From assembly GCF_053078305.1 (NCBI RefSeq), contig NZ_CP166879.1: a stretch of DNA of 64,000 nt, one strand, 5' to 3'. Position 1 is the stretch's first letter. Every line of letters starts with the position of its first letter. Position numbers and translations under genes: made by a program. Below the pieces are notes generated by a model. It saw only the letters and a program-made list of their open reading frames with translations, was not told the DNA's origin and ran no database searches. This document shows, in pieces, positions 56,184-62,808 of the stretch.

Positions 56184-56807
56184 ATGAACAAGAACTTACT
56201 AACAAGGGTAATTATCATTTCGGATGATCTATATTACCTTCAGGGATTAAGTGCAAAACTTGGTCACCATTATCGTTTTTTTATTGAGTGTTTTTTTTGT
56301 TCTCAAAATGCTTGTAATAATGACCTAAGTACACTTAGATTTGATAACCGCTTTACCAAAAACGTACTTCTTGTCGCAGTGGATGATGTAAGTATACTTG
56401 CAAAACTGCCAGATTTAGCCAGGTTTTTAATGATTGTTTCACTAAGAAAGATGAAAAACAGAAATATCTTCTTTTCACTTTCAGAGCAAACATTCATTAG
56501 CCGATATATAAAATTGAATAAACTCATTACGTTGATTAAAAGTAATGATAAAGACCAGCAAGTCAGGCAGGTGACTCTGACAAGGTATGAGTGGGATATC
56601 TATTACCTATATTTTAAGATAGATAACAAAAGAATATTACACACCCTGCTAAAAAAGGATGTCAAGTACATTAGTCACTATAAAATATCAGTTTTCAACA
56701 AGTTTGAAATTGCTTGCGATAGTGATGGCTTTTACATTTTCAAGGCACTTATACAGTTAAGGAGATTTACCGGTTTTAAAAACGTCAGATTGTATCAATT
56801 GCATTAA
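56184..56807 (+). CDS. LuxR/GerE-type HTH regulator (putative fimbrial regulator)
   Basis: 207-aa ORF; C-terminal region fits the LuxR-type HTH pattern (LTRYEWDIYYLY...NKRILHTLL...VKYISHYKISVFNKFEI); immediately upstream of a chaperone-usher operon. Confidence 0.6.
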   Translation: MNKNLLTRVIIISDDLYYLQGLSAKLGHHYRFFIECFFCSQNACNNDLSTLRFDNRFTKNVLLVAVDDVSILAKLPDLARFLMIVSLRKMKNRNIFFSLSEQTFISRYIKLNKLITLIKSNDKDQQVRQVTLTRYEWDIYYLYFKIDNKRILHTLLKKDVKYISHYKISVFNKFEIACDSDGFYIFKALIQLRRFTGFKNVRLYQLH

Positions 56808-56849
56808 TTATCTCGTTCTATATTAACTCTAAATTTCAAGGATATTAAT

Positions 56850-57410
56850 ATGTTTTCTACTTTCAAAAAAGCAGCTCTGCTGGCAGCTATCGCATTACCT
56901 TTTTCTACCATGGCTGCACCGACAGTCACTTTTCAGGGTGAAGTAACCGATCAGACCTGTTCCGTTAATATCAACGGTCAAACCAATTCAGTAGTATTGC
57001 TGCCGACCGTAGCCATGGCTGACTTCGGTGCAACTTTAGCTGATGGCCAGAGCGCAGGCCAGACGCCGTTTACAGTTTCTGTGTCTAACTGCCAGGCTCC
57101 GACTGGTGCAGATCAGGCAATCAACACCACTTTCCTGGGCTACGACGTTGACGCTAGCACGGGTGTTATGGGAAACCGTGATACCAGCAGCGATGCGGCG
57201 AAAGGCTTTGGCATTCAGTTAATGGATTCCAGCACTTCTGGTAACCCAGTAACTCTGGCTGGCGCGACTAACGTACCGGGTTTGACCCTGAAAGTTGGCG
57301 ATACTGAAGCCAGCTACGACTTCGGTGCGCGTTACTTCGTTATCGATAGCGCAGCTGCCACTGCCGGTAAAATTACCGCTGTCGCAGAATACACCCTGAG
57401 CTACCTCTAA
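56850..57410 (+). CDS. Fimbrial major subunit (FimA-like pilin)
   Basis: 186-aa ORF with signal peptide, conserved Cys pair and C-terminal beta-strand (AEYTLSYL). Confidence 0.85.
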   Translation: MFSTFKKAALLAAIALPFSTMAAPTVTFQGEVTDQTCSVNINGQTNSVVLLPTVAMADFGATLADGQSAGQTPFTVSVSNCQAPTGADQAINTTFLGYDVDASTGVMGNRDTSSDAAKGFGIQLMDSSTSGNPVTLAGATNVPGLTLKVGDTEASYDFGARYFVIDSAAATAGKITAVAEYTLSYL

Positions 57411-57474
57411 TTAATCTACTGGCTGGCAGTAAATGCCAGCCAGTATTTCTTCGCACAATTAATAGTGATTTTTC

Positions 57475-60772: not shown

Positions 60773-60787
60773 TATAGAGAAAACCCG

Positions 60788-62122
60788 ATGTCTAAATCGA
60801 CTTTTTTACACATTCTGATTAGCTCCATCATATTGGTGGCACTAATACAATCATCCGCCTGGGCCACTTGTTCTAATACACGCGTCGGACAAACGGAGGA
60901 CGGAAGATCGGCACTCATTGAGTTCGGAAAAATTAACCTGACCGACACCTATTTTGCGCCAGTAGGCTCACTACTCGCGACAACGGTCGTACCTTCCACT
61001 AACTACACATCAGGTGGCGCGTCAGGAAGCTCCGTACTGTGGGAATGTGACGCAACAGATTTGCCAAACATCTATTTTCTGGTCGCAACCAATGGCGACG
61101 ACCGCGTGGGTGGCTTTCACAATGCAGGCGGGCCTGATGGTCTGAGTGATGTCTATGCCACCTGGTTTGCTTTTGTCGGTCTCAAGCAGACTATGGCGGG
61201 CGTGACGATTGGTCGTTACTGGAAAAAAGTGCCCATCACCAGTTATGCCACTCAGGGAACTAAAATCCAGATCCGCTTACAGGATATCCCTCCTCTTCAT
61301 GCTGAGCTTTACCGTATTAGTACGCTGCCTGATACCGCTGGCGCAACCAGTTACTGCGGTAATACCAATACTGATGGCGACGGTGTGGGGTATGCGAAAC
61401 CCTCCGGCACACCTTATAACTGCACTCAGCCTAATGCCTATATTCAGCTTTCCGGTACCAGTGGTATTCCATTTGCTCATGATGAAGTGGGCGAGGACAG
61501 TGCGGATCACTATGATTTTTGGGGTGCTGATAATGGTTTTGGTTACGGAATGCGTTCGGCCAATCGACTCTACAACAATGCCACCTGCGTTGCCCGCAGC
61601 GCCACGCCGTTAGTATTGCTGCCGACAATTGCAGAAGCACAACTGAATGCGGGCATGGAAAGTACCGGTAATTTTAATGTCCGCGTCGAGTGTAGTAACT
61701 CAGTTCAATCAGGGATTAGTGATACTCAGACAGCATTAGGAATCCAGGTATCTGAAGGTGCATATACAGCAGCGCAAAAACTGGGGATTATCAATAGCAA
61801 CGGCGGAGTCAGCGCCTTAGTCTCAGATAATTATGACGCGGCAGAGATGGCAAAAGGCGTTGGGATCTACATCTCAAACAGTGCTTACCCCGATACGGCG
61901 ATGACGCTGGTTGGTCAACCGGGCATCGCGAAGTTAACCCCCGGAGGAAATGCAGCGGGGTGGTATCCTGTATTTGAAGGGGCAACATTAGAAGGTGCGA
62001 CTCACCCCGGATACTCCAGCTATAGTTACTCTTTTATCGCCCGGTTGAAGAAACTGCCAAATCAGACAGTCAGTGCGGGAAAAGTGCGGGCAACGGCGTA
62101 TATATTGGTGAAAATGCAATGA
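60788..62122 (+). CDS. Fimbrial tip adhesin-like subunit
   Basis: 444-aa secreted protein after the usher; size consistent with a two-domain adhesin. Assignment by position and size. Confidence 0.6.
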   Translation: MSKSTFLHILISSIILVALIQSSAWATCSNTRVGQTEDGRSALIEFGKINLTDTYFAPVGSLLATTVVPSTNYTSGGASGSSVLWECDATDLPNIYFLVATNGDDRVGGFHNAGGPDGLSDVYATWFAFVGLKQTMAGVTIGRYWKKVPITSYATQGTKIQIRLQDIPPLHAELYRISTLPDTAGATSYCGNTNTDGDGVGYAKPSGTPYNCTQPNAYIQLSGTSGIPFAHDEVGEDSADHYDFWGADNGFGYGMRSANRLYNNATCVARSATPLVLLPTIAEAQLNAGMESTGNFNVRVECSNSVQSGISDTQTALGIQVSEGAYTAAQKLGIINSNGGVSALVSDNYDAAEMAKGVGIYISNSAYPDTAMTLVGQPGIAKLTPGGNAAGWYPVFEGATLEGATHPGYSSYSYSFIARLKKLPNQTVSAGKVRATAYILVKMQ

Positions 62123-62808
62123 AATCCGTTTTGCTGCTCTTAACCGTCTTGTTCGTACAGTCAGTGGAAGCCGGCATCATGCCGGCTTCTTCACGGATTA
62201 TTTATCGCGATGGCGATCGGGAAAAGACGCTGATGTTGGTCAATACCAATGACTACCCGGTACTGGTGCAAAGTTGGGTAGATAATGGTGAAGGCTCCCC
62301 AGAAGCTGCTTCTCCTCCCTTTGTGGTGCTGCCACCGGTTTTCCGCCTGGTAGCGAAACGAACCCAGGGATTACGGATTATCTATAATCATGACCCACTT
62401 CCCCAGGATCGCGAATCTGCATTCTGGTTAAATCTTTATGAAATGCCGCCAGAAACTCCCCATCAAGATCCCACACATTTAACGCTGGCAATGAATACGC
62501 AACTTAAAATCTTTTACAGGCCAAAATCTGTAACTATGACGCCCCAAGAAGCTATGCGTAAAATAAGTTGGCATCTGGGTAACGACGGCAGCAGTAGCTA
62601 TATTGAGCTTAATAACCCAACACCACTGAATATCTCTTTCACCTCCATCAGCATTGGGGCTACAAAGGTGCAGCAAGAAAGCGATATGATGATAAAACCC
62701 TTCAGTCAACGACGGTACTGGTTAGCAAGTAATAACGTTAGTGGTGTGGTTGCGGCGACATATCTCGATGATAATGGTGCACAGATAAAACAACAATTAG
62801 CGCAATAA
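62119..62808 (+). CDS. Second periplasmic fimbrial chaperone (PapD-like)
   Basis: 229-aa ORF (..SSRIIYRDGDREKTLMLVNTNDYPVLVQSWV..); start overlaps the preceding stop (ATGA). Confidence 0.8.
   Translation: MKSVLLLLTVLFVQSVEAGIMPASSRIIYRDGDREKTLMLVNTNDYPVLVQSWVDNGEGSPEAASPPFVVLPPVFRLVAKRTQGLRIIYNHDPLPQDRESAFWLNLYEMPPETPHQDPTHLTLAMNTQLKIFYRPKSVTMTPQEAMRKISWHLGNDGSSSYIELNNPTPLNISFTSISIGATKVQQESDMMIKPFSQRRYWLASNNVSGVVAATYLDDNGAQIKQQLAQ

Follow-up and report, generated by a model that had tools for sequence, protein, structure and literature searches.

The 64,000-nucleotide window analyzed here (contig NZ_CP166879.1 of RefSeq assembly GCF_053078305.1) is a piece of Escherichia coli chromosome that carries, at 56184-62808, a six-gene fimbrial operon. 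We think it likely that this is a classical chaperone-usher operon, the known loc6, led by a diverged local regulator that resembles the NarL/FixJ response regulators. The operon itself is not new; in E. coli O-island 47 (OI-47), it has already been catalogued under the names loc6 and "type 3-like fimbriae" (PMC3559732, PMC7098969, bioRxiv 10.1101/2020.04.13.038984), an accessory fimbrial locus of enterohemorrhagic E. coli (EHEC) O157:H7 and related E. coli. The new contribution is modest: the first gene, which is unannotated and encodes a protein of 207 amino acids (aa), can be assigned at the level of fold, together with the small adhesin- and EAL-linked family to which this protein belongs.

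An open reading frame (ORF) check of the window gave six ORFs, all on the plus strand and at the same positions as in the first-pass annotation, which had described a LuxR/GerE-type regulator followed by a major subunit, a chaperone, an usher, an adhesin-like subunit, and a second chaperone. For the five structural genes, this description holds, with Pfam scores far beyond chance. The major fimbrial subunit (186 aa, 56850..57410) begins 42 bp past the regulator gene and matches the Pfam Fimbrial domain (PF00419, 7e-15) over the whole protein. The first periplasmic PapD-type chaperone (57475..58197; PapD_N, 1.8e-35; PapD_C, 2.8e-14) has 240 aa when read from the first ATG and 233 aa from the start used in its RefSeq homologs, 7 codons later. 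The outer-membrane usher is of the FimD type (840 aa, 58250..60772; PapC_N, 1e-30; Usher, 3.8e-152; PapC_C, 1.8e-21) and can be aligned over its full length to FimD proteins of solved structure (1e-115). It is followed by a two-domain, StbD-like subunit of 444 aa (60788..62122) in which the Fimbrial domain covers residues 263-444 only; the N-terminal ~260 aa contain no known domain in Pfam, a PDB sequence search with the subunit returned no relative, and we regard this region as a putative receptor-binding domain. The start of the second PapD-type chaperone (229 aa, 62119..62808; PapD_N, 1.5e-37; PapD_C, 5.8e-11) lies 4 nucleotides (nt) inside the end of the 444-aa gene, an overlap of start and stop that suggests translational coupling. 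The parts expected of a classical chaperone-usher system are thus complete by Pfam: a three-domain usher, two two-domain chaperones, a pilin-domain major subunit, and a two-domain tip subunit. Assignment by hidden Markov model (HMM) succeeded for the usher, the chaperones, and the pilin and failed for the 207-aa regulator, which has no Pfam or NCBIfam match.

The operon is identified as OI-47 loc6 because its position (serX to dgcT), its neighbors, and its sequence all match, and the identity of the locus also rests on published work (PMC8565820, PMC10877973). The tRNA-Ser(GGA) gene serX lies at 34194-34281, and all DNA to its right is island. In both strain TB06051 and O157:H7 strain EC4115, one side of the operon holds a two-partner secretion (tps) pair and a long "lipid" cluster with acyl carrier protein (ACP), ketosynthase, and ATP-binding cassette genes, while the other side holds a short-chain dehydrogenase/reductase (SDR) gene, a winged-helix (GrvA-type) regulator, a small gene, an EAL gene, dgcT, and pgaABCD. 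Likewise, loc6 of O157:H7 occupies the same site with the same six-gene layout and with otpAB, SDR, grvA, and vmpA as neighbors. Over the 6.9-kb region, DNA identity to O157:H7 and O55:H7 strains is 96.9%, and the usher is 99.4% identical in amino acid sequence to that of EDL933. The upstream 207-aa gene is not counted in loc6 in the searchable literature, and it is annotated as hypothetical in RefSeq for both TB06051 and EC4115.

That first gene (56184..56807, plus strand) deserves a closer look. A word-indexed search of 5.8 billion proteins returned only the E. coli copies and two orthologs with 54-56% identity, both from gut-metagenome assemblies in which the island is fully syntenic with that of the window but strongly diverged in sequence. 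Between that copy and the window, the structural genes have dS values (synonymous substitutions per site) of ~0.9-1.8 (about 1.5 in the genes neighboring the ORF), so that synonymous sites are saturated, with ratios of nonsynonymous to synonymous substitution (dN/dS) of 0.04-0.13; the major subunit is 90% identical, with a dN/dS of 0.06. The 207-aa ORF has identical length in the diverged island, a dN of 0.32, and a C-terminal stretch of 60 residues that is almost invariant. Because length and frame are kept across saturated synonymous divergence, we take this ORF to be a real, faster-evolving protein gene.

More distant members of the family were found when 1.8 billion representative sequences were scanned in full with HMMER, which added eight full-length relatives at 23-32% identity; a further profile search brought in proteins from Enterobacter and Pseudenterobacter, all annotated as hypothetical. 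Three of the eight relatives give GerE matches of 14.6-17.5 bits, below the cutoff of 23.5, and these matches fall in the part of the sequence where the E. coli protein is conserved. With a 21-sequence alignment of the family, AlphaFold returned a model with a predicted local distance difference test score (pLDDT) of 83.8 and a predicted template modeling score (pTM) of 0.79, and the top Foldseek matches of this model in the PDB are all full-length proteins of the NarL/FixJ type, RcsB being the best (E = 1e-4), followed by ChrA, EvgA, VpsT (3kln, E = 1.7e-3), StyR, FixJ, and NarL. Sequence comparisons point the same way. The four best PDB sequence matches of the family HMM are to the helix-turn-helix (HTH) domain of RcsB (E = 0.03-0.1), and in hhalign the family aligns with an alignment of E. 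coli RcsB, EvgA, NarL, FimZ, CsgD, and YqeH at 91.5% probability (E = 8.5e-7) over 172 colinear columns. Against single sequences, hhalign is weak, though in the HTH register (YqeH, E = 0.015; MatA, E = 0.043; CsgD, E = 0.18), and a PDB sequence search with a shallow profile of the 207-aa protein gave no matches.

We therefore predict, from the model and these alignments, that the 207-aa protein is a very divergent LuxR-type protein resembling NarL/FixJ response regulators. It would consist of a receiver-like domain (residues ~4-120) followed by a C-terminal four-helix, LuxR/GerE-type HTH (residues ~131-196), and at the level of fold this domain order is colinear with that of NarL/FixJ members. 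The LuxR/GerE call of the first-pass annotation is in this sense borne out by model, hhalign, and Foldseek, but not at standard HMM thresholds. The known members (RcsB, EvgA, FimZ, and NarL, as well as the atypical CsgD, VpsT, and YqeH) share length, domain order, and predicted fold with the 207-aa protein at only ~15% identity, and the model has short strands where the alpha-4 region of NarL/FixJ proteins would be.

Within the receiver-like domain, hhalign pairs D14/D15 with RcsB D10/D11, S86 with T87, and R107 with K109. An aspartate (Asp67, Glu in two family members) lies two residues past Ala65, the residue that hhalign places opposite the phosphoacceptor. No kinase gene is annotated beside the distant relatives of the protein (contexts L007-L010). 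In all, the protein is probably an atypical member of its class that would act independently of phosphorylation.

Several observations weigh against a functional operon led by a NarL/FixJ-like regulator, and we list them together. Neither Pfam nor NCBIfam has a match for the 207-aa protein even at E ≤ 10; the sequence-only E-values to RcsB (0.03-0.1) are marginal; and AlphaFold run with a four-sequence alignment gave a poor model (pLDDT, 39). In the profile alignment, Ala65, kept in at least 90% of the family, pairs with the RcsB acceptor D56, and the invariant Arg107 replaces the conserved lysine (RcsB K109). The annotations of the island in TB06051 and EC4115 include no histidine kinase. In one of the distant contexts (L009), no adhesin genes lie downstream of the family member. 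As for the structural genes, the usher is annotated as frameshifted in O157:H7 EC4115 (L017 11253-13770), and deletion of loc6 had no phenotype on spinach roots (bioRxiv 10.1101/2020.04.13.038984); this deletion result and the EC4115 frameshift suggest that some lineages may carry the operon in a cryptic or decaying state.

The company kept by the family is consistent with a regulatory role. The contexts available to us form a small sample, four loci (L007-L010) plus L016, from Enterobacter and metagenomic contigs. An EAL-only gene lies directly upstream of the family member in all four of the distant contexts, separated by 10-16 bp or overlapping by 4 bp, and a divergent gene for a ToxR-like winged HTH protein together with a small gene (~160 aa; 98 aa in L007) is present in each of the three contexts with enough flank. 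The ToxR-like proteins are 30-33% identical to K-12 YqeI and 20-26% identical to the OI-47 GrvA-type protein. Downstream lie chaperone-usher fimbriae in L008 and L010 and YadA-type trimeric autotransporters in Enterobacter (L007); L016 shows the same layout by ORF pattern only. Family members thus stand directly upstream of adhesin operons in unrelated contexts, which supports the regulator reading, and these contexts link the family to adhesin loci and cyclic di-GMP (c-di-GMP) turnover, not to two-partner secretion systems. The family is rare, since a scan of species-representative genomes with the family alignment found only one more locus, in Enterobacter cloacae.

OI-47 itself holds the same four gene types as the distant cassettes, in another arrangement. 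A tentative idea, one that we would not yet expect to be right, is that the 207-aa protein represents an undescribed, phosphorylation-independent branch of LuxR-type, response-regulator-like proteins, which, with EAL, GrvA/YqeI-type, and small partners, makes up a recurrent cassette in the Enterobacteriaceae that switches the adhesin operons next to it, whether chaperone-usher fimbriae or trimeric autotransporters. If true, the OI-47 cassette would tie together VmpA (c-di-GMP), GrvA (control of the locus of enterocyte effacement and of acid resistance), loc6 expression, and perhaps otpAB. OI-47 has two studied regulators, GrvA and VmpA, and the 207-aa protein would be a third, fimbria-linked candidate.

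How might the operon work? Assembly probably follows the classical pathway: periplasmic subunits are bound by the two PapD-type chaperones, and the FimD-type usher polymerizes the 186-aa major subunit, with the 444-aa two-domain subunit as the adhesive tip. Because the gene for the second chaperone starts before the adhesin gene has ended, this chaperone probably serves the 444-aa subunit, as in Salmonella stbABCDE, where the genes stand in the same order. The 207-aa protein would be a local transcription factor acting on the long AT-rich region upstream, which is plausibly silenced by H-NS; by binding this DNA, it might relieve silencing of its own gene and of the fimbrial genes, much as FimZ, MatA/EcpR, MrkI, or CsgD act on their targets. 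We infer DNA binding by the 207-aa protein, its targets, and silencing by H-NS. Should the model be right, the regulator assignment would offer a handle for switching on a cryptic operon, for finding the fimbrial ligand, and for probing joint expression with the OtpAB secretion system.

A conserved hairpin just past the major-subunit gene would probably set subunit stoichiometry. This element (57417..57445, plus strand) has a G+C-rich stem of 12 bp and a short U tract and lies directly 3′ of the major subunit gene. Its predicted free energy is -24.8 kcal/mol (z = -7.1), and in the diverged ortholog the stem is kept at 100% while the flanks differ. Because similar elements are found in other fimbrial operons, it is probably, by analogy, a partial terminator or an mRNA stabilizer that sets the excess of the major subunit.

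A different arrangement of control would be a serious, if less probable, alternative to a local regulator. The fimbrial operon could be mainly under GrvA and its YqeJ-like partner, VmpA (via c-di-GMP), and H-NS/RcsB, with the 207-aa protein accessory or without a role; in the accessory version, it would heterodimerize with RcsB, as RcsA, BglJ, and MatA do. RcsB works with auxiliary LuxR-type partners, and it is the best match of the 207-aa protein in both structure and sequence. Genes of the GrvA-type winged HTH, YqeJ_C-like, and EAL kinds lie just downstream in the island, homologous gene types flank the distant relatives of the 207-aa protein (EAL in 4/4, ToxR-like plus small gene in 3/3), and the activity of GrvA depends on RcsB (PMC10877973). 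Yet even where divergence is saturated, the 207-aa gene still directly precedes the gene for the major subunit, in the usual position of a dedicated fimbrial regulator, and the searchable literature yielded no interaction or regulon data for the protein.

It is unlikely that the 207-aa protein is instead a c-di-GMP-responsive regulator like VpsT or CsgD, in which a degenerate receiver would sense a nucleotide set by an EAL partner and so switch adhesins. The EAL-only gene directly upstream in 4/4 distant contexts, the presence of VpsT among the Foldseek matches, the lack of an aligned acceptor aspartate in the receiver, and the EAL protein VmpA encoded by OI-47 would all fit such a role. VpsT has a W[FLM][TS]R motif. 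No such motif occurs at the VpsT position in the 207-aa protein, its sole similar string being FISR at residues 104-107, which aligns with beta-5 and RcsB Lys109; furthermore, no extra helix alpha-6 is predicted in the model, and the 207-aa gene of E. coli does not have the EAL gene as its direct neighbor. We consider it still more improbable that the first ORF is decayed and nonfunctional and the operon a cryptic relic without present regulatory logic, since, for all that the ORF and its upstream region have a G+C content of 31-34% versus ~50% for the structural genes, that the ORF evolves faster (dN of 0.32 versus 0.05-0.2), that genes nearby are pseudogenized (a tpsA stop here, the EC4115 usher frameshift, and partial deletions in O145), and that the island is lost from K-12, orthologs whose synonymous sites are saturated still have an intact frame of the same length, almost no change is seen in the last 60 residues, the two-domain fold is predicted with confidence, and the family persists in several genera.

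Comparison with known fimbrial systems helps to place the operon. Salmonella stbABCDE has the identical order of major subunit, chaperone, usher, ~440-aa subunit, and second chaperone. Among NCBIfam models, the 444-aa protein matches Salmonella StbD best (5e-33, residues 25-444), at a score below the cutoff (114 versus 363). For the usher, the best NCBIfam model is PRK15248, whose number is adjacent to that of StbD and which we assume to be StbC (703 bits versus a cutoff of 996), and the chaperone scores 119 against the Salmonella StbB model, versus a cutoff of 550. Because the usher, the 444-aa protein, and the chaperone all score below their equivalog cutoffs, the operon is of a type related to Stb and not an Stb ortholog. 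We know of no leading LuxR-type gene in Salmonella stb. The next-best ushers, found by tblastn on E. albertii and Proteus plasmids, are ~55% identical and do not help in assigning the usher class.

The ecpRABCDE operon has the same layout with a regulator in first place: a LuxR-type gene (MatA/EcpR), a major subunit, a chaperone, an ~840-aa usher, a large adhesin, and a second chaperone. Homology to this E. coli common pilus was considered and rejected; in BLASTP comparisons of the usher and adhesin with EcpC and EcpD, E-values were 0.76 and 2.2, not significant, and MatA aligns with the 207-aa family only weakly and in the HTH register, as given above. The resemblance is one of layout and not of common operon ancestry. 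In K-12, yqeH-yqeI-yqeJ, and in Salmonella, marT-fidL, form regulator sets beside adhesin or secretion genes, like the cassettes of the distant relatives. K-12 YqeH reaches the Pfam GerE threshold, unlike the 207-aa protein; its hhalign match to the family is also weak and in HTH register, and the yqe gene order differs.

The operon is more broadly distributed than has been reported. The 6.9-kb region is found in 401 of 5426 complete E. coli genomes, in one copy each, and its closest match is strain TB06051 (fresh water), at 99.3%. The allele in the window is a non-O157 one, with closest matches (98-99.3%) from fresh water, otter, pig, and chicken isolates. According to reviews, OI-47 occurs exclusively in O157:H7, O55:H7, and O145:H28, and current complete genomes contradict this published restriction to the O157/O55/O145:H28 lineages. 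In O145 strains, the region is partly deleted, with the distal 58% or 13% kept. As a side observation, the operon is also present at 98-99% identity in fish isolates, in human isolates without an O157 label, and in strains named as enterotoxigenic E. coli. Insertions of IS1203 and ISEc8 occur in some strains, and with the EC4115 frameshift and the O145 deletions, they mark a locus decaying in several EHEC lineages.

K-12 lacks the operon. The first-pass annotation had raised the matter of whether the locus is distinct from the core fimbrial loci of K-12, and it is, there being no such locus at the K-12 site: the dgcT-serX interval holds only IS3D, a ymdE pseudogene, and ycdU. K-12 ycdU and ymdE (L002 11545-12830) are 99% identical to the serX-proximal island genes (window 34464-36391), with ymdE matching the last 100 codons of the island ACP S-malonyltransferase, and this remnant abuts IS3D. 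For these reasons, K-12 looks like a lineage that retains an IS3-truncated remnant of the island, rather than one that never had it.

On the other side of the operon, the divergent arrangement with the tps/lipid operon proposed in the first-pass annotation was confirmed: tpsA starts at 54793 on the minus strand, 1390 bp from the 207-aa ORF. The AT-rich spacer (54794..56183, 31-37% G+C), a putative shared control region, is 90.6% identical to that of O157:H7, versus 96.9% for the operon, and the divergent tps/fimbrial layout is kept in the diverged metagenomic island. The two-partner secretion pair (49273..54793, minus strand) consists of otpA/tpsA (50981-54793) and otpB/tpsB (49273-50892), with which the lipid/ACP cluster on this strand begins; it has been named otpAB, ECs1282-1283 (bioRxiv 10.1101/2020.04.13.038984). 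A functional link of the fimbriae with the otpAB/lipid cluster has already been proposed in the literature, and we treat coupling of the two, including the coordinated or reciprocal control suggested in the first-pass annotation, as a hypothesis.

Within the spacer, several elements are candidates for regulatory sites. A promoter-like sequence, TTGTTA-N18-TATATT (55935..55964, plus strand), was found by consensus scan ~220 bp upstream of the 207-aa ORF. The diverged ortholog L003 retains both hexamers (TTGTGA...TATATT) as part of a conserved block, while the overall number of sites in the scan is not above that in shuffled sequences; we infer that it may be the promoter of the 207-aa ORF. Closer to the other operon, the ~150 bp adjoining tpsA are conserved with the diverged island, and ~260-310 bp upstream of tpsA lies a perfect 17-bp inverted repeat with a 19-nt spacer (55054..55106). 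Its 12-bp cores, ATCTGAAATGAT-N19-ATCATTTCAGAT at 55059-55101, are kept in the strongly diverged ortholog while the repeat spacer diverged, and both its fold z-scores (-7.9 and -6.7) and its motif count stand out from shuffled sequences. This palindrome is a candidate operator or RNA hairpin, nearer to tpsA than to the fimbrial genes. An Rfam scan of 54000-64000 gave only a chance match to a miRNA model, on the palindrome.

A switch of the fimS type was rejected. A 12-bp inverted repeat at 55578/56154 flanks ~560 bp upstream of the 207-aa ORF, but this segment has one colinear orientation in 380 of 380 genomes; in addition, the neighboring pairs of repeats, two in number, lack a mirror-image order, and there is no recombinase gene nearby. 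A 62-aa ORF at 55919-56107 lies within a poorly conserved, indel-rich stretch of the spacer.

In the window, tpsA carries an in-frame stop at 52703-52705 (minus strand), reading NNYATT-stop-SAGN, versus NNYATTWSAGN (Trp) in TB06051. It splits the 1270-aa exoprotein into ORFs of 696 and 554 aa and is either a pseudogene mutation or a sequencing error. The gene is also split in one metagenomic ortholog (L004).

A few further observations concern the placement of the island and its relatives. The region has a single "plasmid" occurrence, in record NZ_CP124742.1 (212 kb, filed as an EDL933 plasmid), which we attribute to the record, since it carries the chromosomal island and is probably a misassigned chromosomal contig. 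The whole-island ortholog (L003-L005, from Hadza gut and other metagenomes) comprises the lipid cluster, tpsBA, the regulator, the fimbriae, and the SDR, GrvA-like, and YqeJ_C-like genes, and its neighbors are genes for a LysM/M23 peptidase and LysR, not serX. The cassette in L008 adjoins a LysM/M23 peptidase gene, which we take to be ygeR-like and so near the position of yqeHIJ in K-12.

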